A stretch of 15,355 nucleotides of DNA, from positions 1 to 15,355 of the forward strand of contig JAZGDW010000034.1 in the NCBI GenBank assembly GCA_036478295.1. Direction: 5' to 3'. The first letter of the stretch is position 1. Each line of letters starts with the position of its first letter. Under the pieces are notes generated by a model. It did no database searches and had not been told where the DNA came from. It saw only the letters and a list, made by a program, of their open reading frames with translations. This stretch comes from Candidatus Krumholzibacteriia bacterium. Lineage in GTDB: Bacteria > Krumholzibacteriota > Krumholzibacteriia > WVZY01. The position numbers were made by a program, and so were the translations under genes. This document shows, one piece after another, positions 1-15,232 of the stretch.

Positions 1-135
1 GCCCAACGCACTCTCTTCGAGGCCAAGAGAGAGTATATCGACACGTTAGCCGATTACCATCAGTCCAGCGCCGATATGGAGCGCTTGATCGGGCAACGGC
101 TCGATACCGTCACAGGTCCACGGGACCAGGAATAG
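1..135 (+). CDS. czcC: 3' end of TolC/CzcC-family outer-membrane efflux factor (partial)
   Basis: Frame 1 reads AQRTLFEAKREYIDTLADYHQSSADMERLIG...DQE-stop (TAG 133-135). This resembles the OMF C-terminal 'AQRTLF...ERLIG' segment and lies directly upstream of adaptor and RND genes. Confidence 0.8.
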   Translation, partial: AQRTLFEAKREYIDTLADYHQSSADMERLIGQRLDTVTGPRDQE

Positions 136-145
136 GAAGGGAGGC

Positions 146-1135
146 ATGATGCAAAGAAGAAAGACGATCACTGGTATCGCAGTCGTCGCCGGGGTGATTA
201 CTGTAGCGCTCATAGCCTATTGGGCGATTGGTCCCGCGGGGAATTCACCGGCGGGATCGGAGGAGGCGCAACACGGGGCTGAAGACAAAGGGCACGACGA
301 GCACGGCGAAGAGGCTGTGGTGCAGCTAAGCGCAGCGGAAATGGAGGAGTTCGGCATTGAAGTCGGGAGAGCCGAAGGGGGCGTGCTGCACATCCGCACG
401 ACGCTACCTGGTGAAGTTGTCTCCAACCAAGATAACGTCGCCCATGTCGTGCCGAGATTCCCAGGCTTGGTGACTGACGTGCGAAAACAGTTGGGCGACC
501 ACGTCGAGAAGGGCGAAGTGCTGGCGATCATCGAGAGTAACGAGAGCCTGACCGGATACGAGGTGAAATCCCTCATCGCCGGAACGATTACAGAGAAGCA
601 CATCACGCTCGGCGAGGTGTTAATCGAGGGCGACGAAGCGTACGTGATTGCAGACTTGAGCACGGTGTGGGTCAACCTGAGCGTGTACCAAGAGGATTTG
701 AACCTCGTGCGGAAGGGACAGAAAGTAGTCATATCCGCGGGACACGGCATTCCTGACGTCACAGCGAAGATTTACTACGTCGGGCCGGTGGTGGATGAAC
801 ACACGCGGACGGGACTCGCTCGGGTGGTGCTGTCCAACGAAAAGAGGCTCTGGCGTCCAGGCCTCTTCGTTACCGCGCGACTCCTCGTTTCCGAGGAAAC
901 GGTGCCGCTGCTCGTTCCCGAGACGGCCCTACAGACGATCGATGATAAAACGTGCGTCTTCATCGAAACGGAAAAGGGCTTTGAACCCCAACCCGTGGGG
1001 CTCGGCCGCCGCAACGACACCCATGTTGAGATCGTGTCGGGCCTCACGGTGGGGCAGCGCTATGTCACGCTCGGTGGTTTTACGCTTAAAGCCGAGCTCT
1101 CAAAAAGCGCCTTCGGCGAAGGACATGGACACTAA
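146..1135 (+). CDS. czcB: Heavy-metal RND efflux periplasmic adaptor (CzcB/CusB family)
   Basis: N-terminal TM anchor, His/Glu-rich linker, lipoyl-type GDHVEKGEVLA, IADLSTVWV, WRPGLFV, His-containing tail (GEGHGH). RBS GGAGG before ATG 146. Confidence 0.92.
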   Translation: MMQRRKTITGIAVVAGVITVALIAYWAIGPAGNSPAGSEEAQHGAEDKGHDEHGEEAVVQLSAAEMEEFGIEVGRAEGGVLHIRTTLPGEVVSNQDNVAHVVPRFPGLVTDVRKQLGDHVEKGEVLAIIESNESLTGYEVKSLIAGTITEKHITLGEVLIEGDEAYVIADLSTVWVNLSVYQEDLNLVRKGQKVVISAGHGIPDVTAKIYYVGPVVDEHTRTGLARVVLSNEKRLWRPGLFVTARLLVSEETVPLLVPETALQTIDDKTCVFIETEKGFEPQPVGLGRRNDTHVEIVSGLTVGQRYVTLGGFTLKAELSKSAFGEGHGH

Positions 1136-1153
1136 CGAGGAGGGAAGCTGATT

Positions 1154-4100
1154 ATGCAAAAACTCGTCAACTTCGTCCTCGCCAACCGCCTGTTGGTGCT
1201 CGTCATGGGCGTCGTCGTCATCCTCGCGGGCTATTTGAGCTACCGCCAGTTGCCGGTGGATGCGTTTCCGGATGTGGCGCCCGTCCTGGTTCAGGTATTC
1301 ACCGAGACCGAAGGGCTCGCGCCAGAAGAAGTTGAGAAGTACGTGACCTACCCGATCGAGGTCTCGATGAACGGACTTCCGGCGGTCAGTCAGATCCGGT
1401 CGGTCTCTAACTTCGGTCTCTCCGTCGTCAACGTCTACTTCGAAGACGGCACAGACATCTATTTTGCCCGGCAACTCGTGAACGAGCGGCTCCAGGAGGC
1501 ACGCGAGGAAATCCCCGAAGGCTTCGGCGAACCGATCATGGGGCCCATATCGACGGGGATGGGACTCATCCTCTTCTACTACCTGGAAGACGAGACAGGC
1601 CAGTACAGTCTTGAAGAACTTCGGACCATCCAGGACTGGCTCATCAAGTTCCACCTCCAGACGGTGCCTGGGGTCACCGAAGTACTCGGCATCGGTGGCT
1701 ACGAGAAACAGTTTCACGTGGTCATCAATCCAAATGCGTTGCTTCAGTACGAAGTAACCATCAACGAAGTCGTTGAAAACATCCGGGCGAACAATCTCAA
1801 CGTCGGTGCCCAGTTCATCGAGAAGAACGCTGAGGAGTACATCGTCCGGTCGGTGGGCCTCGCGTCGACGATCGAGGATCTCGAAAACATCATCATCAAG
1901 ACAGAAGATGGAACACCGGTCTATCTAAAGCAACTGGCAGCGGTGCGTGTGGGCGGCGCCGTCCGACGCGGCGTACAGACTCGTAATGGTATCGGCGAGG
2001 TCATCTCCGGCATGGTAGTGAAATTATTCGGCACGAATTCATCAACAGTGATCGCCAGCGTCGAAGAGAAAATGGAAGAGATCAACGCAATCCTGCCCGA
2101 AGGCATCAAGATTGTGCCCTACTACGAGCAGAAGACGCTCGTTGAAGCGTGTATCGAAACGGTGAGCCACGCCCTTCTCGAGGGCATTGTTCTTGTAATT
2201 GTCATTCTGCTCGTCTTCCTCGGGGGGGTCCGGCCGAGTCTCGTTGTGGCGCTCGCCATCCCATTCTCCGTGCTGTTCGCCATGCTTGGAATGAAGTACT
2301 TCGGGATCTCCGCCAACCTCATGTCCTTCGGCGGGCTTGCGATTGCGATCGGCATGATGGTTGACGGCAGTGTGGTGATCGTCGAGAACGTCGATCGCAT
2401 GTTGCGAGATTCCCGGAATAACGAGCCCGTACTTCGCGTGGTAGCGCGGGCCTGCACCGAAGTCGTGCGGCCGATCACGTTCGCCATCATGATCATCATC
2501 ATTGTCTTCTTCCCCTTGTTCACACTGCAGGGCGTTGAGGGGAAGACGTTCCGTCCGCTCGCGTACACGGTCGCGCTGGCGATGACGGGCTCGCTGATCT
2601 TTGGTGTGTTTCTCACGCCGGTGTTGGCCTCATTCCTCATGCGAAGACCCAAGCGAGTGGGCAGTGGCGCCCACGGCGAAATATGGGTCCTGCGAGTGCT
2701 CCTGAGAATCTATCGACCGGTCATTACATTCCTCGTGCGGAGGCGGTTTTTGGCCGTTGGACTGGTCTTGGTCATGATCGTTGTGGGTATCACGATATTC
2801 CCGCGACTCGGGTCCGAGTTCACGCCTGAGCTGCAGGAGGGGACGATGGTACTGCGCCTGACGATGGCCCCGTCCATTTCACTTAAGGAGAGTACGAAGA
2901 CAACCCTCCTCGTTGAACGGCGATTGATGAAGATCCCGGAGATCACCGGCGTCGTCTCGCGCATCGGCCGGGGTGAGGTGGGTGCGCACACCGATCCGAT
3001 CAACAACGCGGAGATGTACATCTTGCTCAAGCCAAGAGAGGAATGGCGAGCCCGAACCCAGGAAGAGCTCCAAGAAGTCATCCGCGAAGAGCTGGGGGAT
3101 GTACCAGGGGTGTTGACGAACTTCACGCAGCCCATTCGTATGACAGTGGACGAGCTCCTCGAGGGGATCCGGGCAGAGTTGGCAATCAAACTCTTCGGCG
3201 ACGATCTCGACGTCTTGAAGCGCAAGGCGGACGAGATAGCGGCTGTTGTACGGCGCGTACGTGGGGCAGCCGATGTCCAGGTTGACCAGGTCAGCGGCAC
3301 GCCCCAGCTGCTCATTCAGGTGGATCGGTACGCGATTGCCAGGTACGGCATAAACGTCTCCGACGTCCAACAGGTTGTACGCGCCGCGGTCGGCGGTGAG
3401 GTGGCAAGCCAGGTCTTCGAAGGGATTCGTCGCTTCGACATCCTCGCTCGCTTCGAAGCTGAATACCGAAGTGACGTGAGTGCCATCAAGAAGCTGCTCG
3501 TTCAAACGCCGGAAGGCGCAAATGTGCCGCTACACGAGCTCGCTCGGATAGAGGAAGTAACCGGTCCTCGGCAGATCACCCGCGAGAACAACCAGAGATT
3601 CATTACGATCCAGTGCAACGTCACCGGTCGCGATATCGGTTCGTTTGTTGCGGAAGGGAAGGAGGCCATTAAGGCACGGGTGCAGCTGCCAGCCGGGTAC
3701 CTCGCCACGTGGGGTGGCCAGTTTAGACTGCAGCAGGAGGCCAACCGGCGGCTGGCGGTCGTGATCCCGATCACGCTCATGATCGTTTTCTTCTTCCTGT
3801 TCTTGAGCTTCAAGTCGATGAAGAACACGTTACTCATCTTTCTCAACATCCCGTTGGCGCTCGTCGGCGGTGTCGTTGGGCTCTGGGCGACAGGCCAGAA
3901 CCTCTCAGTGCCCGCATCGGTGGGGTTCATTGCCCTCTTCGGCATCGCGCTCCTGAACGGAATCGTGCTGGTAACGTACCTCAACCAACTCATCCAGGAA
4001 GGACTGCCGATGGACGACGCATCGGTGCAGGGGGCATGCCTCAGACTGCGCCCCGTCCTCATGACCGCGTTTGCAGCGGCCCTCGGGATGATCCCGCTAC

Positions 4101-4249
4101 TCTTCGCAACCGGTATCGGTAGTGAGGTCCAACGGCCGTTGGCAACGGTTGTAACGTCCGGGCTCGTCACGTCGACGGCTCTGACACTTCTAGTCGTACC
4201 AGCGATCTACAAGTGGTTTGCGGTCAAGCCCGGGGACGTCGAACTCTAG
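1154..4249 (+). CDS. czcA: CusA/CzcA-family heavy-metal efflux RND transporter
   Basis: 1031 aa with LPVDAFPDV, APEEVEKYVTYPIE, GGLAIAIGMMVDGSVVIVEN, RLRPVLMT and GSEVQRPLATVV motifs typical of HME-RND. Metal specificity cannot be read from the sequence. Confidence 0.96.
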   Translation: MQKLVNFVLANRLLVLVMGVVVILAGYLSYRQLPVDAFPDVAPVLVQVFTETEGLAPEEVEKYVTYPIEVSMNGLPAVSQIRSVSNFGLSVVNVYFEDGTDIYFARQLVNERLQEAREEIPEGFGEPIMGPISTGMGLILFYYLEDETGQYSLEELRTIQDWLIKFHLQTVPGVTEVLGIGGYEKQFHVVINPNALLQYEVTINEVVENIRANNLNVGAQFIEKNAEEYIVRSVGLASTIEDLENIIIKTEDGTPVYLKQLAAVRVGGAVRRGVQTRNGIGEVISGMVVKLFGTNSSTVIASVEEKMEEINAILPEGIKIVPYYEQKTLVEACIETVSHALLEGIVLVIVILLVFLGGVRPSLVVALAIPFSVLFAMLGMKYFGISANLMSFGGLAIAIGMMVDGSVVIVENVDRMLRDSRNNEPVLRVVARACTEVVRPITFAIMIIIIVFFPLFTLQGVEGKTFRPLAYTVALAMTGSLIFGVFLTPVLASFLMRRPKRVGSGAHGEIWVLRVLLRIYRPVITFLVRRRFLAVGLVLVMIVVGITIFPRLGSEFTPELQEGTMVLRLTMAPSISLKESTKTTLLVERRLMKIPEITGVVSRIGRGEVGAHTDPINNAEMYILLKPREEWRARTQEELQEVIREELGDVPGVLTNFTQPIRMTVDELLEGIRAELAIKLFGDDLDVLKRKADEIAAVVRRVRGAADVQVDQVSGTPQLLIQVDRYAIARYGINVSDVQQVVRAAVGGEVASQVFEGIRRFDILARFEAEYRSDVSAIKKLLVQTPEGANVPLHELARIEEVTGPRQITRENNQRFITIQCNVTGRDIGSFVAEGKEAIKARVQLPAGYLATWGGQFRLQQEANRRLAVVIPITLMIVFFFLFLSFKSMKNTLLIFLNIPLALVGGVVGLWATGQNLSVPASVGFIALFGIALLNGIVLVTYLNQLIQEGLPMDDASVQGACLRLRPVLMTAFAAALGMIPLLFATGIGSEVQRPLATVVTSGLVTSTALTLLVVPAIYKWFAVKPGDVEL

Positions 4250-4259
4250 GAGGATTCGC

Positions 4260-4295
4260 ATGAAGGAGATTGAAGCAATCATGCGTCTCTCCTAG
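4260..4295 (+). pseudogene. Remnant N-terminus of a P-II-like protein
   Basis: GGAGG RBS (4249-4253), then ATG 4260 encoding MKEIEAIMRLS-stop. It matches the P-II start MKKIEAIIRP, and P-II-like genes commonly follow czcA. Confidence 0.65.
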
Positions 4296-4584
4296 CACCC
4301 GCGCTAGGCGGCGAGGGGGCTTTGTGCACCAGACCTCCGCTGACACAGAATCTTTTGTGAAGGCACAGCGGACTTTAAGTACAGTGCTGCCATCACAAAC
4401 TCCTCTTTCGCGATTAATCATAACGGATTGGAACTCGGGTCTAATCCACAGCCGTGCGCACAAAAAGTCCGCTGCGTGCTCCCTTGTCATTGCGGCGCCA
4501 GCACGACCGCGTTGCTGCATACAGTGTTACCTAGAACCAGAAAACAGATCGCGTCGCGACAATTGGGTGACGATGAATAGTATA

Positions 4585-4601
4585 GTCACAGGGCGGTCAC
4601 A
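4585..4601 (+). repeat. Arm-like tandem repeat GTCACA-N5-GTCACA (putative right end of an upstream element)
   Basis: 11-bp period. Ends 54 bp before the tRNA 5' fragment, versus 55 bp for the equivalent repeat before the intact tRNA. Confidence 0.55.
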
Positions 4602-4654
4602 ATCAGGTCTTTCAGTGGCGGTCGGAATATGCTAAGTGTAGGAAAGACAACGAC

Positions 4655-4693
4655 GCCGGAGTGGCGGAATGGTAGACGCAGCGGACTTAAAAT
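4655..4693 (+). repeat. tRNA-Leu 5'-half duplicate (att site)
   Basis: GCCGGAGTGGCGGAATGGTAGACGCAGCGGACTTAAAAT is identical to 10247-10285. Identity stops one base after the anticodon loop. Confidence 0.95.
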
Positions 4694-4823
4694 GCGAAAA
4701 CGGCCCGGAATCAACTTCGTTGTCACACAACGAGATAGCCGATAGCTCTTTGAAAATATTTATGTTACACCGCTAATCAGCTTGCGGGACTTTGTTCTAC
4801 TTTGTGGGGTTTTGGCCAGAGCA

Positions 4824-4842
4824 TTAGCACAAATTTAGCACA
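4824..4842 (+). repeat. Arm-like tandem repeat TTAGCACA-AAT-TTAGCACA (left end of cassette B)
   Basis: Same motif in the same orientation at 10174-10192. Confidence 0.8.
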
Positions 4843-5099
4843 GCTTGCCGCGCCACCCTTCATCGAGCGTAGAATTGATTCACGGTCAAGAGCGTGCATG
4901 CTCGACCCCACATGATCCCACAACGCCACATCCAGCAATTGCCCGCTTGCCACAGTACGCCTGTTGTGGTACCATGATGTCTCACTCTTGCCGGACGCCT
5001 CATTGGGAGCACAAGCAACGATCCTCCGCTAAAAGACTCGTTTCACTCAAAGACTCAACGCGTAACGAACCATTGGACAAATCATAGGAGGTTGTCCTG

Positions 5100-5759
5100 A
5101 TGGCAATCCGTACTCGGCGGCGAAACGCTCGCGGCGTTTGGCTGGGCCGCTTTTGCGTGGTCGTTGGCTGTCTCGTCATTCCAGCGTGCAGCGATGACCC
5201 TGTGCTACCGCTTCCTCCAGATACACAGGTTGCGCCGCCTTGGTCGATAGACTCCGCCCCGATATCGATTGCCGGCATCGCTGCAGTGGGAGAAAAAGCG
5301 GTTGCTGTGAGCACTAACGCTGGTACCTACCAGTATGATGGAGCTGCCTGGCAGCGCATCGCCGCTGGAGTCAACCGCACCCAAGACATCGCATTGACGA
5401 CAGACGGGGACGTGTTCGTCGTCACTCGTGGCAACCCTGGTGGTCGCGTTCTGCGTCTCGACGGTAGCAGTTGGAGCGAGATGCTGGCGGTAGGCCGTTC
5501 TGGTGCGTGCTATCGGTACGGGTCCCTGAATGCCATTTGGGCGAGCGCCAGCGACGACATTTTCGTCGTCGGACCGACTGAGTCGTGCTCTTACGTGGAT
5601 GGAGTTACCGTCTATCACTACGACGGTACGTCATGGAAGAACATCGGGCCTTGGGGAAGTGCCGAGGCCATGTACACCGTGTGGGGATCTTCGTCAACAG
5701 ATGTTTTTATGGGTGGCTCTTGGGGGTCCATCTACCTGTCCCTACCAAATAATCCATAG
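5100..5759 (+). pseudogene. Beta-propeller-repeat lipoprotein, C-terminally truncated by IS insertion
   Basis: AGGAGG RBS, lipobox-like LVIPAC, and repeats such as AIWASASDDIFVVG...YHYDGTSW and VWGSSSTDVFMGG. The last codons (LSLPNNP-stop) are read from the IS terminal repeat starting at 5737. Confidence 0.75.
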
Positions 5760-7020
5760 CCCTCACTAATATAGGTGATTCGGCGCCGATTTGATCCGGA
5801 CATGTGCGACTGGCCGCCCTAGATTTGCCCATATGGTGGAAGATCAGGGGTATAAGCGGGGGACGAGACGCGGGGCCGGTTAATCTGCGAGCACCAATCC
5901 ATCTGCTCCCGATCGGATCAGGCAACTGGGAACTACTCAAGCAGCCTTGCGATAATACCGATGATGAAGCCCTCCGACCATCGGCTCAGCGACAACGGTG
6001 CCAGCGCCGGGCAGCTCGACTTCGCGCGGAACCGGTGAGTCCTTCCCGAGTCCGAGATGGGTTCTCGCTTCGTGGTAGTACTGGAAGTACTCCTTCAGGA
6101 TCCGTCGCAGGTGTCGGTGGTTGAGCACGATCACATGGTCGAGGCACTCACGCCGCGCCGATCCAATCACCCGCTCGACGTAGCCGTTCTGCCACGGGGA
6201 CTTGCGTGCAGTAACGACCTGTTCGATTCCGATTGACCGCAACGTATCAACGACCTTCTCGCCGTAGATTTTGTCGCGGTCCCGAAGCAGAAACCGTGAG
6301 GCGGTGTCGAACGGAAAGGCTTGGACGATCTGCCGGCTTGTCCATTCCGCAGTGGGTGAGTCGGTCACGTTGAAGTGGAGGACGCGACGCCGATCGAGTG
6401 AGAGGACAACGAAGACGTAGAGCGTCTTGAACGTAAGGGTTGGGACGGTGAAGAAGTCGACCGCTACGATCTCGGAGAAGTGGTTGTGGATAAACGAACG
6501 CCACGTCGGTGACGGTGGACGGCGCCGCTTGATTATGTACTTGGCGACCGTCGCTTCGCTCACATCGATGCCGAGCTTGAGCAACTCTCCGTGAATCCTG
6601 GGCGCGCCCCAGAGCGGGTTTTCCCGAGATATTCGTCGAATCAGGCATCGGACCTCCACCGGCACAACCGGTCGGCCGCGTCCTCGACACTTCCACCGCC
6701 AGTAGAGTCGCCACCCTTTGCGGTGCCACGCGACGACGGTCTTAGGCTGAACGATGGCCAGTGATTCACGCCAGTCCGGCCAGAGTCGAGAGAGGACGAT
6801 CCACAGAACGCGGTCTCGGTTGGTCAGGTGCCGCGGTTTCCGGGTTCGCTGGAGAACATCGAGTTGATGGCGAAGTGCAAGGTTCTCCAGGGCTAGGGAA
6901 CGGCGGGATTTGATGCTGGAAAAGATGGCGCGCAGGATGAGTAGTAGCATTGAGCCATGCTATACTCTGGGCGGCGTAAGTGCAAATGGGGCAACGGCGA
7001 TGAATTATTTGGTAGGCACA
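5737..7020 (-). mobile_element. Insertion sequence, 1284 bp, IS481/IS3-superfamily-like (TGT...ACA ends)
   Basis: Terminal inverted repeats TGTCCCTACCAAATAATCCATAGCC and TGTGCCTACCAAATAATTCATCGCC (22/25 match) enclose one DDE ORF. No target-site duplication visible. Confidence 0.88.
5937..6950 (-). CDS. DDE transposase with integrase-core (rve) domain
   Basis: LALENLALRHQL, ENPLWGAPRIHGELLKLG (HTH), AVDFFTV (D), FLLRDRD (D), SPWQNGYVER (E). Confidence 0.93.
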   Translation of the reverse strand: MLLLILRAIFSSIKSRRSLALENLALRHQLDVLQRTRKPRHLTNRDRVLWIVLSRLWPDWRESLAIVQPKTVVAWHRKGWRLYWRWKCRGRGRPVVPVEVRCLIRRISRENPLWGAPRIHGELLKLGIDVSEATVAKYIIKRRRPPSPTWRSFIHNHFSEIVAVDFFTVPTLTFKTLYVFVVLSLDRRRVLHFNVTDSPTAEWTSRQIVQAFPFDTASRFLLRDRDKIYGEKVVDTLRSIGIEQVVTARKSPWQNGYVERVIGSARRECLDHVIVLNHRHLRRILKEYFQYYHEARTHLGLGKDSPVPREVELPGAGTVVAEPMVGGLHHRYYRKAA

Positions 7021-7073
7021 GTCACTTCTCCGACGGTGTTTTATGAACGCGGTTTTTGGCAGGAGGAAGGGAG

Positions 7074-7110
7074 AAAAGGGGCGCCGCCGGTCGGGAGGCG
7101 ACACCCCTTT
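7074..7110 (-). terminator. Intrinsic terminator of the minus-strand rSAM/peptide transcript
   Basis: Minus strand reads AAAGGGGTGTCGCC-TCCCGACC-GGCGGCGCCCCTTTT. The stem pairs fully (two G-U) only on the minus strand and is followed by a pyrimidine run. It starts 17 nt after the peptide stop. Confidence 0.75.
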
Positions 7111-7127
7111 CCTCGGTGAAACACGAG

Positions 7128-7265
7128 TTACGCGCATTTGCCGCGCTGCTTGCAATTTAGCCGGCAGAACGGCGGCATAGTGCCCGTTTTAGTCGGCGGT
7201 GCAGCTAAAGCACGCTGCTTCTTCCCAGGGAGCTTGCGCTCCTTTGGGACCTTGCGAATGTGCAT
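7128..7265 (-). CDS. 45-aa basic peptide with three C-terminal Cys; putative RiPP precursor (not in ORF track)
   Basis: AAGGAGG RBS overlaps the rSAM stop codon. ATG 7265 encodes MHIRKVPKERKLPGKKQRALAAPPTKTGTMPPFCRLNCKQRGKCA-TAA, followed by a terminator. Confidence 0.8.
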   Translation of the reverse strand: MHIRKVPKERKLPGKKQRALAAPPTKTGTMPPFCRLNCKQRGKCA

Positions 7266-7277
7266 AGCAAGCCTCCT

Positions 7278-8459
7278 TTACGATTCGACGCCAAAGATGG
7301 CGCACAGGACAGGGTCTTTACCGCAGATGTGGCTGTGTTCTTGAGCACGAAAACGACAACCACCACGGCATTCTTCCAGGAAACGGCAATCTTGGCATTC
7401 CGTGAGCATTTCCTGGGTGACGCCTTTCCGCTGTACCCAGGCGCTGCGGAGATCAACCTCACGAATATTGCCAATTAGCATCTCCTCCGTATGGAGAAAC
7501 GGGCAAGGGTATATTTCGCCGTTTGGAAACACAGAGCAGATATGCGAACCACAGGTGAAGTTGCTCTTCGACAAATGCGGCCCCTCGCCGTAGCTATACT
7601 CCAACATAATCTCAGCGGCTTCCTGAATGGGAACCGCATGTTCTGAATTTTCGCGCCACCGGCCCAGCTCAGACGGGGCATTTATGATCCAGTCGGTGAT
7701 TTCAAACGACTCCCAAAGTTTAGCGAGCTCAGGGAAGTCATTGCGGTTTTCTCCGTGCACCATCGTAGCAATCGCAACTGGAATCCCGGCAGCTCGGAGC
7801 GCCTTGATACCACTGAGCGAGCGTTTGTACGATCCGCGGCCGCGGAGGAAGTCGTGCCCCCGCTCCGTGCCGTCTATGCTAACTTGTGCCAAGTCGACAT
7901 TAAGACAGCGCGCTACGTCGGGGGTTACCTCTGTACCATTGGTAAGAAGCTCGAAGCGTAGATCGTAGTCTGTGAAGTAGTTATTAAGTTCCCAGAAATT
8001 GGGATGCGTGAGCGGTTCTCCACCAGATAGCAGCACCGTGAGGCCCTGCATGTCAACCATTTGATCCATGAGCTCAAGAATCGACGTTAGTGGCAGATCT
8101 TGGTCCACAGCTGGAGCCGTATAGCAGTGCTTGCACTTGAGGTTGCAGCGAAATGTGAGGTGGAGAAGCAGATAGCGAAGTGATGGCAACGGGGGAGCCA
8201 CTGACGGATCAACGTTGAAAGTCCTGCCTCTCTGGCCGTCAGCCGGCACGAGAATGCCCTCATCCAAACAGAACTTAAGGAATGTTGCGGCTCGAGGGTC
8301 CTGGGTGTAACCGGGTACGCTTGGTTGGTTGAGGAACGCGAGCGCCTCCTCGTCAATCTCGTAAAGCTCATCTGTCCGGCCTCGGTAAACAACGGGCGTC
8401 TCAAGGCGTTTGAGCGAGCAATCTTCGGACAACTGCAAAAGGGCACCAGGTTGCTTCAA
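7278..8459 (-). CDS. Radical SAM/SPASM-domain protein with N-terminal RRE/PqqD-like region; putative peptide maturase
   Basis: CNLKCKHC (CxxxCxxC), SGGEP, and SPASM cysteines CGSHICSVFPNGEIYPC...CQDCRFLEECRGGC...DPVLC. Start placed at TTG 8459 after GGAAGGAGG (393 aa) rather than 8561. Confidence 0.92.
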   Translation of the reverse strand: MKQPGALLQLSEDCSLKRLETPVVYRGRTDELYEIDEEALAFLNQPSVPGYTQDPRAATFLKFCLDEGILVPADGQRGRTFNVDPSVAPPLPSLRYLLLHLTFRCNLKCKHCYTAPAVDQDLPLTSILELMDQMVDMQGLTVLLSGGEPLTHPNFWELNNYFTDYDLRFELLTNGTEVTPDVARCLNVDLAQVSIDGTERGHDFLRGRGSYKRSLSGIKALRAAGIPVAIATMVHGENRNDFPELAKLWESFEITDWIINAPSELGRWRENSEHAVPIQEAAEIMLEYSYGEGPHLSKSNFTCGSHICSVFPNGEIYPCPFLHTEEMLIGNIREVDLRSAWVQRKGVTQEMLTECQDCRFLEECRGGCRFRAQEHSHICGKDPVLCAIFGVES

Positions 8460-8562
8460 CGCTAGGCCTCCTTCCCAGCAGACGTAGCCGTTATTGGCAT
8501 GGCACATTTGCGTCGATCCATCTACGCAACCTTCGTGATTAGTAAAGACACTAAGGTGCAAC

Positions 8563-9801
8563 TCACAACGTGTAGTTGAGCCCTAAAGTATATGCCCAGT
8601 CCCAATCCGACTTGTTAGTTGGCACCTTTCGCTTTGAGTAACGAACGCCCGCGAACAGGCCGAACGATCCCACCATGTGGTTCAGAGCCCCACCCACGAT
8701 TAAATCATCAAACGGGCTATCCGATACCTTAAACCCGACCACCGCGCTCGGCCAGCCGAGATGAACTAGACGGGTCCTATCGCTGCGGGGCAACTTGGGG
8801 CGGGACAACAGGTAGAAGTTGAATAAAATATATGGTTCGACCTCTTTGCTCGAGACGCCTTGCTCACGGTGCTTGCCATCTACGAGCGTGAAAGCCAAAC
8901 CGAAGCTTGCTCTGACTCGGGATGGACTGTAGTTCCCGAATGTGGCGTAAGCTCGGCTATCTTTCAGCGCTGCTCTGACACGATAGATCGTATTCTCGCG
9001 TACCGAGATTTTTGCCATACCGAAGTAGAGCGCTTTGTCGCTTGTACCAATAAGTTGCATGGACAACTTGGCGTCTTGGTCTTCCAGTTCCTTTTCCTTG
9101 TCGGCCGTTGGCTTGACGTCCGCGAAAAGAGATACGATGGCCGCAATCACGGAAAGTTCCCCTATCCCGCGGCGGTACTCCAACGCCTCCGAGCGAACGG
9201 ATGGTGTGATAGCTGTAAGCTTCTGCACCGTTTTCTTGCTGAATTCTTCATCGGTCGGCTTTTCAGTCGTACGGGTAATCGTGGTGGTTGAGTCAAACTT
9301 TTCCTCGACGGAAGTCGAGTCGTTCACTCGTGTCCTCTGAAACTTCTGTACCGTTTCTTGTACCGTTTTAGTGATGGTTCCTTTATCAGCCGGTCTTAAA
9401 GTGGTACTGTCAATCGTGGTGGTTGATTCGAACTCGTGCTCGAGGAGACTCGGGTCGTCTGTAAATACCATTATCCATACGTATCTCGCGTCCCACAGGT
9501 CCTCCACAATCTTACCATTTTGAACGAGAGCAGCTTTAATGTTATGTGTCTCTGTGCCATTCTTTTTAAAATAGACCACGAGATCGACGAGATTCTTATC
9601 ATAACCGGGCTTGAAAAACATGTCTGGTATTCCGATCAAACTGTCGTTATTGTCGTTGTCTAACAAGGCAAACAACTCCACGCACCTCAATGAATCGAGC
9701 GGGTATTGCCGGTTTCCCATGGGGTGTTCTCGTGCGTGACATAGGTCAAACGAAACCGCCGCTAACCCGGTTACTATAATTAGACACATCGCTCGTGCCA
9801 T
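8563..9801 (-). CDS. Exported hypothetical protein with Thr-rich repeats and C-terminal outer-membrane beta-barrel-like region
   Basis: ATG 9801 after GAGGAG, signal peptide MARAMCLIIVTGLAAVSFDLCHA, amphipathic strands ending WDWAYTLGLNYTL. 412 aa. Confidence 0.7.
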   Translation of the reverse strand: MARAMCLIIVTGLAAVSFDLCHAREHPMGNRQYPLDSLRCVELFALLDNDNNDSLIGIPDMFFKPGYDKNLVDLVVYFKKNGTETHNIKAALVQNGKIVEDLWDARYVWIMVFTDDPSLLEHEFESTTTIDSTTLRPADKGTITKTVQETVQKFQRTRVNDSTSVEEKFDSTTTITRTTEKPTDEEFSKKTVQKLTAITPSVRSEALEYRRGIGELSVIAAIVSLFADVKPTADKEKELEDQDAKLSMQLIGTSDKALYFGMAKISVRENTIYRVRAALKDSRAYATFGNYSPSRVRASFGLAFTLVDGKHREQGVSSKEVEPYILFNFYLLSRPKLPRSDRTRLVHLGWPSAVVGFKVSDSPFDDLIVGGALNHMVGSFGLFAGVRYSKRKVPTNKSDWDWAYTLGLNYTL

Positions 9802-9940
9802 GATTATCTCCTCGTCGCGGGGAGAAGATGTCGCAGGCCGTTCTATTAACACGCACAACATTTGGGTAGAAGGGGAGAGCGGAGTGCGATTCTGGTGTAA
9901 TATGTTAACCCGTACGACAAGCTGAGGGTAATTTAGTTAG

Positions 9941-9954
9941 TTGATAATTATCAA
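9941..9954. promoter_or_regulatory. Perfect palindrome TTGATAATTATCAA (FNR-box consensus TTGAT-N4-ATCAA)
   Basis: Exact 14-bp palindrome in the AT-rich region upstream of the minus-strand cluster. Confidence 0.5.
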
Positions 9955-9995
9955 TAACCGTTGCATCGCTTCGCAGGCCGGGAATGGTCACGTCG

Positions 9996-10035
9996 GTTGT
10001 AAAAGAAAGTTTACAGTGTAAACGGAGTTTACAAC
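9996..10035. promoter_or_regulatory. Tandem operator pair TGTAAA-N6-TTTACA / TGTAAA-N5-TTTACA
   Basis: GTTGTAAAAGAAAGTTTACAGTGTAAACGGAGTTTACAAC contains four half-sites in nested dyad symmetry. Confidence 0.6.
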
Positions 10036-10173
10036 GCTACCAGTCGAGCAGGCATTACCCATGGTATCTTCGCTTGATAGTCGAATTCTGGAATCTTCTC
10101 GAAGCGAGAAGCCCTAGCCAGATCGTCGCGGGCCGGTTAAGATAGCCTTATGAAGCGGGACCGCGTACACCGA

Positions 10174-10192
10174 TTAGCACAATATTAGCACA
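10174..10192 (+). repeat. Arm-like tandem repeat TTAGCACA-ATA-TTAGCACA (right end of cassette B)
   Basis: Direct repeat of 4824-4842. Flanks are also similar (A...GCTTGCC vs A...GTTGCC). Confidence 0.8.
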
Positions 10193-10246
10193 GTTGCCCC
10201 GACGAAACACCGAACGGGTTTCGTAACTGTAGTAATGACAATAGGT

Positions 10247-10335
10247 GCCGGAGTGGCGGAATGGTAGACGCAGCGGACTTAAAATCCGCTGGGGTTATAA
10301 ACCCCGTGCCGGTTCGAGTCCGGCCTCCGGCACCA
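10247..10335 (+). tRNA. tRNA-Leu (anticodon UAA)
   Basis: Acceptor stem GCCGGAG/CTCCGGC, discriminator A and encoded CCA, anticodon arm GCGGA-CTTAAAA-TCCGC, long variable arm GGGGTT-ATA-AACCCC, T arm GCCGG-TTCGAGT-CCGGC. Confidence 0.98.
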
Positions 10336-10378
10336 TTTATCTCATCGGGATGACCCCGAGAGGCGCCAGATATTCAAA

Positions 10379-10400
10379 ATTGTGTCAGTTTTGTGCTTCG
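10379..10400 (-). repeat. Arm-like repeat (left end of cassette C)
   Basis: Plus strand ATTGTGTCAGTTTTGTGCTTCG is 21/22 identical to 13245-13266, with TTGTG at 11-bp period. Its reverse complement resembles the GCACA repeats of cassette B. Confidence 0.8.
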
Positions 10401-10446
10401 TCGGATCCCCAACGTCCGGCCTGGGGGCTGTGCCGGCAGAGCGTGT

Positions 10447-10479
10447 AAAAAGGGCGGCTCTTCGGGGCCGCCCCTCTTT
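10447..10479 (+). terminator. Hairpin terminator downstream of tRNA-Leu
   Basis: AAAAAGGGCGGCTC-TTCG-GGGCCGCCCCTCTTT: GC stem with UUCG loop, flanked by A and T runs. Confidence 0.75.
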
Positions 10480-10772
10480 GTTCAGGTCCTGCGATGGGGA
10501 GTCGCCGTACCCGGTGCACGGGCCTAAGCGTAAGAGGACCATCTTCTTCGTCAGCGGTTTCGGCGGCGATTTAGCGGCTCGACTCCCCGTCCATCCGAGG
10601 CCCGGATCCTAAATGGCTGGCGAACCCGTTCGACATTCGGAGAAAAGTGTGGTAGTCTCTGCCTGTCTTTCCGCGCCGGGGCGTTCTTAGCGTTCAGCCC
10701 ACTCATCTTCACGCCATACTCCTCTATACTGATCCCACCGGCGATTCTCTGAAGTCCACAGGAGGTCTACGC

Positions 10773-13065
10773 ATGAGGCGAATACGAAGGGTTTTTGACC
10801 GGAACCCGGCCTGCCCGCCGTCCCGTGGGGGCAGGGTGAGGGTTACGGCAATATCTTTGATGACAATGATGCTGATCGCCATTGTAGGGTGCGGAGGGGA
10901 CGACCCACCACCCGTTGCCGTGGACACCAAAGCGCCGACGGTGACATCGATGTCGCCCGCGGCTGGGGCCATGAACGTTTCGTTGAATACGACCATCAGC
11001 GCGACCTTTTCGGAGGCGGTACGCGCGTCGACCGTCAATGCCACGACCTTCACGGTCGGTGGTGTGTTGGGTACGGTCGTGCTCAACGGAAAAGTGGCGA
11101 CCTTCACGCCCTCGGCTGCCCTGGCCGAGAGCACGCCCTACACGGTGACGATAACGACCGGGGTGAAGGACATCGCGGGCAACGCGCTGGCTGCCGATTT
11201 CGTGTGGTCGTTTACGACCCTAGGAACCGCGCCTGTGGTGGCGTCGGTCTCACCCTTAAATGGGGCCATGGGTGTTTCGTTGACGAGCACTGTCAGTGCA
11301 ACCTTTTCGGAAGCGGTCGATCCCGCGACGGTGACGGCGACGACATTTACGGTGAGCGGCGTGACCGGCACTATCAGTGTCAACGGTGCGACGGCGACCT
11401 TCACGCCCTCGGCCGCCCTGGCTGAGAGCACGCCCTACACGGCGACCGTCACCACCGGCATAACCGATCTTGCCGGCAACGCGCTGGCTGCCGATTTCGT
11501 GTGGTCGTTTACGACTGGCTCGGCGCCCATTGCCAACGCCGGACCGGATCAGGACGTGACCCTGGGTGTGAGCATCGTCCTGGACGGCTCGGCGAGCCAA
11601 GGCGATTTCCAGACCCGCACTTGGGCCCAGGTCTCGGGACCAACGGTCGTGCTGACCAACCCGACCAGCGCGACTCCAACGATTCCGAATCCGCCGAACG
11701 AAGTTACGACGATGGAGTTCGATCTGACGCTTACCTTCGGCGGCCAAGAGAGTCGGGACCGCGTCGTGATCTTTATCCTCGAAGACGCGGACAACGCGCT
11801 GTTTGTGAGCAGGACAGGTAGCGACGCGAACGCCGGCACGCGCCAGTCCCCGTTCGCAACGGTGCAGAAGGCCATCGATGTGTCGAACGCCGTCGGAGGC
11901 GGGGCGGACGTCTACGCTACTGACGGCGTTTTCTCGGAAACGATTACACTGCGCGACAACGTGAGCATCTACGGTGGCTTCCACCGGATCACCGGGCTCC
12001 GTGATATCCAGCTGAACAAGACCATCATCAACGGGGGGCCGCAGGCAGTCACGGGCTCCTCAGCCAATAATTTGACCCTCGACGGGCTGGAAATCCTGAG
12101 TGCCGCCGGCCACGGCCGGTGGGAGCTCGATTGTGATCAGCCTCGAAAGTAGCACCGGCGTTGTCATCTCGCGTAACACCCTGTTTGCCGGCATTGGTAG
12201 CAACGGCTCGGACGGTTGCACTTCGCCGTTAGGTTTTTGCCCCAAACCTGGGGCCGATGGCGACGACGGTCGCACCGCCGTTGCAACCCCGCCCGGTTTG
12301 GGGGGACCCGGCGGGGGGGGGGGGACTGCAGGACATGACGGCGGTAAAGGTGGAACAGGTGGTGCTGGTGTGGGGTCAGACGGCTTCCCGGGAGACGGAC
12401 CCTTAGGTGGGCTCGGCGGAAGGGCACAGCTTTTTAACGGCTCAAGGGGCGGCACGGGCGGCAACGGCACCAACGGCGGCAATGGCCTCGGAGGATTGGC
12501 GTTCGGCTCTACAGGCGGGGCCGGTTACAACCCGAGTAATGGGGCTGACGGGGGCGACGGCACTAGCGGCAGTGGTGGCGGTGGCGGTGGTGCCGGCGCC
12601 GGCGCCAGCAACTTCATTGTTTTTGGTGGTGGTGGTGGTGGTGGTGGTGAAGGCGGCGGTGTTGGCAAGTACGGCCGCGGCGGTTTCGGTGGTGGCGGCG
12701 CTTTCGGCATCCTGCTGACCGACGGAAGCAGCGCGACCATTACCGATAATACCATCACCACGGGTGAAGGTGGTGACGGGGGAAGCGGCGGTGAAGCCAG
12801 CATCGGTGGCATCGGTGGCACCGGGGGAAACGGCGCGAATGCTGGCCACGGCACCGGTGGCAACGGTGGCGACGGCGGTATCGGTGGCATCGGCGGTCAC
12901 GGCGGCAGCGGCGGCGGTGGACCGTCGATTGGTATCGTCGAGAGTGTAACAAGCAGCTCCACTCGGACGCTCAACGTGTTCACGCTGGGAACCGCCGGCC
13001 TCGGGGGGACCGGCCCGGGCAATCCGGGCGCCGCTGGAGAACGAGTGAACTACTGGAAAGAGTAG
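10773..13065 (+). pseudogene. Surface lipoprotein (2x Ig-like Big_5, PKD-like, DUF1565/beta-helix-like, Gly-rich PGRS-like tail) split by a frameshift near 12109
   Basis: AGGAGG RBS and lipobox IAIVGC, two ATFSEAV...DLAGNALAADFVWSFTT domains, APIANAGPDQ, GSDANAGTRQSPFATVQKAI. ORFs 10773-12152 and 12100-13065 join as ...ILSAA/ATAGGSSIVI. Could be a sequencing error. Confidence 0.75.
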
Positions 13066-13081
13066 CTTATGCGGCTGTGAC

Positions 13082-13117
13082 AAAAGGGGCGGTTCTTCGG
13101 AGCCGCCCTTTTCGTTT
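13082..13117 (+). terminator. Intrinsic terminator after the surface-protein gene
   Basis: AAAAGGGGCGGTTC-TTCG-GAGCCGCCCTTTTCGTTT, 16 nt after the stop at 13065. Confidence 0.85.
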
Positions 13118-13244
13118 CGATGTTCTTGCCCCGACTCGGTAGCGGGGCGGTTTGTTCCGATCAGCTCCGTGTTCCACGCGGGGGTCCCCAAAGGACGGGA
13201 TCCGGCTAGCGATAGTCAAATCAGGCGAGAACGGCTGACCGCAG

Positions 13245-13266
13245 ATTGTGTCAGATTTGTGCTTCG
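13245..13266 (-). repeat. Arm-like repeat (right end of cassette C)
   Basis: Plus strand ATTGTGTCAGATTTGTGCTTCG, a direct repeat of 10379-10400. Confidence 0.8.
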
Positions 13267-13380
13267 GCCACGGACAAACTGTCGTATAGTGACACGACGC
13301 CTCGGCAACGTAAGTGTAAGACCAGTCAACCAGTTACAACGTATTATTAATTCTCGTGAAACGTCAAAAGAGCTGGATTT

Positions 13381-13450
13381 CGGACTTAAAATCCGCTGGG
13401 GTTATAAACCCCGTGCCGGTTCAAGTCCGGCCTCCGGCACCATTTATCTC
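13381..13450 (+). repeat. tRNA-Leu 3'-half duplicate (att site)
   Basis: CGGACTTAAAATCCGC...CTCCGGCACCATTTATCTC matches 10274-10343 except A13423 vs G10316 in the T loop. Confidence 0.96.
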
Positions 13451-14410: not shown

Positions 14411-15232
14411 CTAGATCTCGAACTTAATGACGAACTTGAGGACAATCGCGGCGGCAAACGAGTAGATGATAAAGATGGCGATCCAGTGCAGGTCCCAGCG
14501 GAGGAAGGGGTAGGATGCCCCCGGGTACGCCACGGTGACACGGGCGATGGGCGAGTCCTTGGGAATAGCGGGCAGGGCCGGGTGAAGGAATGGCTCGACC
14601 CAGCCGCTGGCATTGCGCTCATGCCCGATCATGCGGTAGCCATCCTCGGCCACCAGGGGAAACGTATAGAGACTGCCGCCGCCGGATAACGTGACCTCAT
14701 GCGTTCCCGGGCCGTCCACGCGGAGACGCCAATCGATCTCGCGGGTCTCCGCGACACGCACCGGTGGTCCGTCCGCCACCACACCACCACCCAGGTTCAA
14801 ATCCAACTCGGTTCGAAATGGATCGATGCCTTCCTTTAGCGACACGGAGAGTATCGTCGTCTCGCCGCTGGCGAGGGGCTGCCGCGAGTAACGCTCGTCC
14901 ATCTGCATGAACACAATGACGACGGGCACGAGCAATATGATAAACGGCCGAAGCAACGTGCCCAGGTAGCGGCCATTGGCACCGAGCGTCCCCCCGAACC
15001 CTCTTATGATGAGCACCGGGTCGTCCTGGTAGATCCGCATCTCGAGGATGCGGGCTTTGAGCTTTTCCTTAGCGGCCTTGATAGCGGCCGCGTTGGACGT
15101 CCATTTGAAGACGTACGCCATCACCACGCCGGTCAGGAGCGACAGCGCGACGAGTCCCACAGTGTGACGATCGCCGTAGGGTACGAGCACAATATTAAAG
15201 AGAGTGGTAATCAAGCGGGCGAAAGCATCCAT
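14411..15232 (-). CDS. Integral membrane hypothetical protein (DUF106/EMC3-like N-terminus possible)
   Basis: 273 aa with three hydrophobic segments and a basic helical linker (IKAAKEKLKARILEMRIYQDD). Start lies 2 nt after the upstream stop. Confidence 0.75.
   Translation of the reverse strand: MDAFARLITTLFNIVLVPYGDRHTVGLVALSLLTGVVMAYVFKWTSNAAAIKAAKEKLKARILEMRIYQDDPVLIIRGFGGTLGANGRYLGTLLRPFIILLVPVVIVFMQMDERYSRQPLASGETTILSVSLKEGIDPFRTELDLNLGGGVVADGPPVRVAETREIDWRLRVDGPGTHEVTLSGGGSLYTFPLVAEDGYRMIGHERNASGWVEPFLHPALPAIPKDSPIARVTVAYPGASYPFLRWDLHWIAIFIIYSFAAAIVLKFVIKFEI

Follow-up and report, generated by a model that had tools for sequence, protein, structure and literature searches.

How does one tRNA gene come to stand between two partial copies of itself, with cargo genes and no integrase on either side? 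The window that raises this question, a 15,355-nucleotide stretch of DNA from a Candidatus Krumholzibacteriia bacterium, is the entire contig C245 of assembly G000 (3.5 Mb in 316 contigs, 91% complete, 5% contamination). ARAGORN found a single tRNA in it, a tRNA-Leu(TAA) at 10247-10335 on the plus strand (anticodon loop 10278-10284), which folds into a cloverleaf, is the sole Rfam match in the window and is the only intact copy found in the assembly; no sigma-70-like promoter was found upstream of it. The initial annotation had placed a 5' half upstream and a 3' half downstream of this gene, and both are there. The 5' copy (4655-4696) is identical to the intact gene at 41 of 42 positions with a spacing of 5592, and the 3' copy (13381-13450) at 69 of 70 positions with a spacing of 3107, spacings that bear out the unit sizes of 5592 and 3107 bp given in that annotation. 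On the plus strand, the 5' half proper (4655-4693, loop CTTAAAA at 4686-4692) ends at the core and forms the left junction of the 5592-bp unit, and the 3' half, which includes 8 nt of flank, forms the right junction of the 3107-bp unit. As had been proposed, all three copies share a 12-nt core at the anticodon loop, CGGACTTAAAAT, composed of four stem bases, the 7-nt loop CTTAAAA and one stem base. This core occurs three times in the window (at 4682, 10274 and 13381) against 0.03 expected, and none of 200 shuffles gave three occurrences; the proposed crossover in the anticodon loop is supported. Separately, a hairpin-forming stretch at 4320-4376, 313 nt before the 5' half, closes in a core-like GCGGACTTTAA, which is either a chance match or an older junction.

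Lambda-type att sites are organised as a core plus arm sites. At all four ends of the window's units, and at the end of the unit upstream of them, we found a direct pair of motifs, CACA-N7-CACA, with an 11-bp period, at distances of 84, 135, 85, 96 and 123 nt from the loop; these repeats had been overlooked in the initial annotation, which had described the half copies correctly. The short-side pair of the upstream unit lies at 4583-4601 (plus strand), 84 nt before the loop at 4686. The 5' unit carries a long-side pair, TTAGCACA-N3-TTAGCACAG, at 4824-4843 (plus strand), 135 nt after the same loop, and a second pair at 10174-10193 (plus strand), 85 nt before the loop at 10278, within an element-borne right end that occupies 10105-10246 (plus strand) upstream of the tRNA. 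The pairs of the 3' unit are inverted (TGTG-N7-TGTG) and lie on the minus strand, the short-side pair at 10379-10400, 96 nt after the loop, and the long-side pair at 13245-13266, 123 nt before the loop. The 3' unit is a mirror image of the 5' type: its minus-strand long end begins TCCGAAA, a heptamer found directly after the loop in many 5'-type ends, and the mirror of this heptamer, TTTCGGA, precedes the 3' half at 13381. Genome-wide, CACA-N7-CACA occurs 52 times in 7.04 million strand-bases (7.4e-6 per base). By analogy with lambda, we regard the pairs as putative integrase arm sites and the tRNA loop as their core. Translated, the window arm also looks like an integrase tail, but we gave this no weight as evidence, since the same holds for every repeat of this kind.

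The units on both sides of the tRNA lack an integrase, in agreement with the initial annotation. No tyrosine integrase was found among the 12 open reading frames by Pfam, on contig C245 in a genome search for PF00589, or in the window with a six-frame integrase HMM, which likewise detected no remnant of one in the window's units, the unit beside the tRNA included. The only recombinase-like gene is a DDE transposase, and the main reading frames, compared with Pfam and NCBIfam, contain no integrase, relaxase or conjugation genes. Reading rightward from the left junction, the cargo of the 5' unit comprises a repeat protein (5100-5759, plus strand; Tectonin-like, below the cut-off) whose 3' end is cut by an IS3/IS481-like insertion sequence (5736-7021, minus strand; 26-nt inverted repeats; transposase 5937-6950), a radical SAM/SPASM protein assigned by Pfam/NCBIfam (7278-8561, minus strand) and a 432-aa protein that matches no Pfam or NCBIfam family (8563-9861, minus strand). 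The last has a 45-aa internal repeat, encoded at 9224-9323 and 9359-9458. Apart from the transposase, none of this cargo matched any of the loci compared with it. The 3' unit carries a Big_5 (Ig-like) and glycine-rich surface-type gene (10773-13065, plus strand) in two frames (10773-12152 and 12100-13065), where its paralogue on contig C24 is a single frame of 893 codons. GC-rich, terminator-like hairpins at 10448-10478 and 13082-13112 flank this cargo, and a third follows the C24 paralogue. GC content is 54% in the 5' unit, 62% in the 3' unit and 60% in the genome. With an insertion, a frameshift and a truncation, the cargo in the window is decaying.

The array had been delimited at 4655-13450; that span is real, but the array runs further, and positions 1-4654 are the tail of another unit. 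This tail holds CusB/CusA-type RND efflux genes (146-4249, plus strand; Pfam HlyD_D23 and ACR_tran) and the truncated start of a small gene (4260-4292, plus strand), which is intact after CusA in the same-genus genome G001 and which we take to be P-II-like. The efflux genes are probably a further integrase-less unit whose left end, a 5' half plus a long arm, lies on contig C163, because the end of C163 overlaps window positions 1-132 at 95% identity. An efflux cassette 81% identical to this one stands behind a 5' half in G001. CusCBA-type metal-efflux cargo also lies behind Leu 5' halves at loci L023, L024, L030 and L004, in unrelated metagenome-assembled genomes, as it does at 146-4249.

Could the whole arrangement be a chimera, assembled from metagenome reads at a repeated tRNA? 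The fragmented and partly contaminated assembly, the imperfect C163 overlap and the frequency with which relatives' contigs break at tRNA-Leu(UAA) would all fit such an origin. However, every junction has unique flanks and correctly placed arms, the downstream flank is syntenic with relatives, and the same design occurs on single contigs of independent assemblies (L022, L029, L082, L087 and G215), which argues against a chimera; we consider this explanation hardly credible.

Occupancy of the site varies among relatives, as had been predicted, with empty sites on both sides of the tRNA. Of 11 relatives' loci that have an intact tRNA, five show the homologue of 14411-15232 immediately 3' of it, three have it 1.5-9 kb away and three have no match to it. 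G001 has other genes 3' of its tRNA, no Ig-like gene and no second 3' half. On the 5' side, seven loci of genus g13 have, before the intact tRNA, the genes that in G021 precede a 5' half plus long arm, and G034 and G031 form a second occupied and empty pair. A DUF5674 gene pair adjoins Leu halves in G000, G004 and G026 (83-89% identity), its order relative to the efflux cassette being reversed between G000 and G026; this unit has no arms, and its halves are damaged. At L002 (G004:C219, 2502-2539), a damaged Leu 5' half and the DUF5674 pair lie downstream of the intact tRNA, a placement that the Islander configuration filter, as given in the accessible text of PMC4383910, rejects. Another side observation comes from a genome of the same family: at L097/L102 (G008:C1:12580-13765), an integrase of full length (354 aa) is oriented towards a Leu 5' half that is damaged and seems to be interrupted by another insertion.

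Further copies exist elsewhere in G000, where nhmmer located four more tRNA-Leu 5' halves, on contigs C44, C163, C223 and C114; several half copies are damaged, and C44 and C223 are connected solely through synteny with G026. The left end of the 5592-bp unit is 78% identical to that of C44 over 160 nt. C245, C163 and C114 share a right-end stretch of about 140 nt (79-86% identity), beyond which each has cargo unrelated to that of the others. On C114, a 5,715-bp unit without an integrase, carrying kinase-TPR and TonB-receptor genes and bounded by GCGGACTTAAAA repeats, sits at a non-tRNA site. Its long arm is at 136 nt, and its right end holds the short arm (85 nt) and the 5' half. No tRNA 3' half follows that 5' half. 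In relatives without the unit, the distance between its flanking genes is about 30 nt (G001), 158 nt (G007) or 835 nt (G009), and the gap in G001, an empty site, does not contain the core. It follows that the 5' half is carried by the element and not by the host. The genome search gave eight PF00589 matches in G000 (none, as noted, on C245). In this assembly, at 91% completeness, none of the eight is a cognate integrase beside a Leu half, and no helper integrase was identified among them. One, on C233, adjoins the 3' part of a tRNA and has arms that repeat every 12 bp, but it groups in a quick unrooted tree with the G008 integrase aimed at the damaged Leu 5' half and so is still a candidate; another, on C182, lacks a core at the offsets where one would be expected. 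Fragments of other tRNAs also occur in G000 and mark further island ends: a Pro-GGG 5' part (C224:14564-14595), a Phe 3' part (C197:15386-15434) and a Thr-CGT 3' part (C85:269-322).

The half-plus-arm pattern extends beyond these genomes. Scans with the arm allowed at 120-150 or 120-140 nt found 11 loci in a genome collection, whose labels include Eubacteriales, Clostridiales and Ignavibacteria plus two archaeal-labelled MAGs, and 19 matches in 18 metagenome loci. The pattern itself selected these 30 matches for an arm, and they lack full independence, L029 and L077 being one element. They comprise 26 5' halves and four intact tRNAs, and among the 5' halves the arm lies at 123-124 nt in 24 and at 134-135 nt in two. 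Long-side spacings thus differ by about 11 nt, and short-side spacings fall at 84-86, 96 and 108-109 nt. Thirteen complete units examined (773-5,715 bp) contain no full integrase: two of them (L082 and L084) keep a C-terminal integrase part that points at the tRNA, and 11 show no integrase trace. An integrase fragment also precedes the Leu half of L074. The same scan of viral contigs gave no matches, the truncated integrases used as queries retrieved one and two viral loci, none of half-plus-arm design, and each of the 211 matches to phage records was below 60% identity.

What would an autonomous member look like? On contig G215:C2, a 5' half (35475) is followed by an 11,431-bp unit with efflux and P-type ATPase genes and no integrase, a second 5' half (46906), a 31,506-bp element and the intact tRNA (78412). 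The 31,506-bp element encodes a PF00589 integrase, an HTH_17 protein that is excisionase-like, a PF13814 relaxase, a coupling-like TraG/D-like protein and a type III restriction system, and its right end runs from HTH_17 through integrase and arm to the intact tRNA. The integrase frame runs across the arm and continues into the 5' half of the tRNA; the short-arm spacing is 86 nt, compared with 85 nt in the window. The element belongs to a different lineage from that of the window and has a different arm sequence. With the truncated L082 protein as query, whose own tail biases the ranking, we retrieved 131 full-length integrase homologues; among the best 120, at least eight read into a Leu-UAA 5' half and at least ten into a Leu-CAA-like one, and others run into further tRNA starts, judging from peptides read by eye. 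In many of these proteins (P0001-P0120), the reading frame continues across the arm repeat and enters the 5' start of one tRNA or another, which means that target and polarity can be read from the protein tail alone. In 4 of 80 viral loci, a related integrase immediately precedes a different tRNA at its 5' start (tRNA-Arg, tRNA-Ser and, twice, tRNA-Gly). Polarity may have switched repeatedly among these integrases, since the quick unrooted tree, which left out XerC/D, C182, L090, L095, L098 and L099, does not unite those that read into a 5' half as one clade.

It could be argued that the units are dead remnants of ordinary islands, long fixed, whose arms persist by chance or as a source of a tRNA promoter. 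The pseudogenising cargo and the damaged halves would be expected of such remnants, and the left ends on C163 and C114 no longer align to that of the window by blastn. Yet the half copies are 98-99% identical to the tRNA, the arms are still exactly in register where an end provides no promoter for a tRNA (4824, 13245 and C114), and the units are absent from same-genus G001, making this reading very unlikely.

We consider it moderately probable that the units are CIME-like decayed derivatives of integrative elements that accreted at one tRNA with both the usual 3' and the uncommon 5' polarity. According to this model, the anticodon loop of tRNA-Leu(UAA) would serve as attB for lambda-like tyrosine integrases, with Int binding the inverted repeat of the anticodon stem and crossover falling in the 7-nt loop. 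Two mirror-image attP designs would use this target: a 5'-type attP would bring a new upstream region and a tRNA 5' half and push older DNA upstream, and a 3'-type attP would bring a tRNA 3' half and push DNA downstream, the placement of the overlap with respect to the attP arms presumably deciding which half is supplied. Repeated integration would then build a two-sided array in which each newcomer enters beside the intact gene. Units would lose their integrase and transfer genes, by deletion or in exchange for cargo, but retain core and arm sites. Renewed movement would then have to await a cognate autonomous element, with which a unit might be co-excised in cis or whose integrase it might borrow in trans. 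Several observations speak for such decay: arm pairs at all ends of the window's units despite their low genome density, a tight register within a wider allowed range, integrase homologues that read into the Leu-UAA 5' half, and empty sites in relatives on both sides. The autonomous G215 element in tandem with an integrase-less unit, the truncated integrases in two of 13 units together with the L074 fragment, which could be decay intermediates, and the decaying cargo of the window fit the known decay-and-accretion (CIME) route; a CIME-IME-target gene order is already described in the accessible text of PMC7563491. Against this model stand the unit beside the tRNA, which has no integrase remnant, and the failure to find a cognate integrase by a Leu half in G000. 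The autonomous element, moreover, comes from another lineage and has arms unlike those of the window. The approximately 140-nt right-end module common to three unrelated cargoes, one of them at a non-tRNA site, is easier to understand if a backbone already lacking an integrase moved and swapped its cargo.

That last point leads to an alternative that we rate as doubtful, namely that such units make up an established class of non-autonomous cassettes, each moving singly with an integrase supplied in trans, the tRNA acting as an integron-like capture point and one integrase possibly serving both orientations. The complete C114 unit, with both arms, between genes adjacent in G001 is what such movement might leave behind, but its integrase may have been lost once the unit was in place, and no core is present at the empty site in G001. 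Likewise, the DUF5674 pair beside Leu halves in three genomes, with its order swapped relative to the efflux genes, suggests independent movement, but it has no arms, its halves are damaged, and the C44-C223 join in G000 depends on G026. The 11 complete units without integrase trace, the clean window units and their integrase-free right-end module, the conservation of arm spacing across lineages and the presence of only two XerC/D-like recombinases in each of G021, G209 and G211 are also consistent with mobilisation in trans; however, the scans selected for the arm pattern, no identical unit was seen in two hosts, and no helper was identified. It is tentative, and rather improbable, that cassettes without an integrase form a family that spans lineages and stays mobile in trans at tRNA-Leu(UAA) through one integrase type that uses the symmetric anticodon stem-loop either way. 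If such a family exists, a single tRNA would collect and reorder cargo on its two flanks as well as at secondary sites that resemble it, capturing genes much as an integron does while escaping island finders that depend on an integrase. Returning to the decay model, we infer the origin of the units from integrative elements and any mobility that they have today; the mobilisation in trans proposed in the initial annotation is possible. Either way, catalogues that require an integrase miss such units, although these hold metal-efflux, kinase and surface-protein cargo and differ from relative to relative. The locus offers precise candidate att sites in both polarities and a full-length candidate integrase found with its element, and it makes two ideas testable: that integrase-less units move in trans, and that polarity is set only by the lie of the overlap and half in attP.

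How does this array compare with known systems? Integrons are defined by IntI, attI and attC. The outcome here is similar, with small cargo units stacked at one site in an order that varies between genomes, but the window has no IntI beside an attI and no tyrosine recombinase on its contig, the units span several kilobases, and the junctions are tRNA halves with direct arm repeats, that is, double-stranded arm-plus-core sites 100-150 nt deep. Even a cognate-type integrase, P0017, scored 60 bits against an integron integrase model with a cut-off of 265. The array is therefore not an integron. The 'integron-style' likeness drawn in the initial annotation holds for the outcome only, whereas its tandem accumulation on both sides and the uncommon 5' polarity stand. 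The Prochlorococcus tycheposons (bioRxiv 10.1101/2020.12.28.424599, accessible part) also integrate serially at tRNAs, with partial tRNAs between elements, the newest element beside the tRNA and remnants outward. In that account, however, 474 of 501 tycheposons carry a tRNA-associated tyrosine recombinase, and the window units have none of their own.

Islands integrated in tRNA genes with a 5' tDNA fragment were reported by Zhao and Williams 2002, as cited in the available portions of PMC1635311 and PMC6563490, the latter calling 5' polarity 'considerably less frequent'; Islander has 159 such islands among 3919 (PMC4383910, accessible text). The window units resemble these in their anticodon-centred crossover and in an upstream, same-orientation 5' fragment before a restored tRNA, but they form arrays, coexist with a mirror-image 3' unit and carry no tyrosine integrase. 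By the Islander rules, from the same portion of PMC4383910, an island must encode an integrase and measure 2 kb or more, which would exclude the window units. In the main texts that we searched, which included few subscription journals, we found no description of a two-sided, mirror-image or integrase-less 5'-half array. Islands without an integration module are described at Dehalococcoides ssrA in the accessible text of PMC3146451. CIME arrays, as far as the accessible text of PMC7563491 describes them, share several features with the array here: units of 1-13 kb that have att sites and no recombination genes, a tandem arrangement at one target, and metal-resistance cargo. Both window units retain core-and-arm pairs at both ends, as attL and attR, and contain no integrase, relaxase or conjugation genes. 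As for descent from an ICE or IME, the IME-like G215 element, with its CIME-IME-target order and PF13814 relaxase, shares the end design, and truncated integrases occur in L082 and L084 and not in the window. Compared with those CIME arrays (PMC7563491, same portion), the window differs in that its target is split with the 5' half displaced, both sides are used, G000 has no autonomous element in tandem, and one unit lies at a non-tRNA site. On present evidence, this locus is a variant of known tRNA-island accretion and not a new system.
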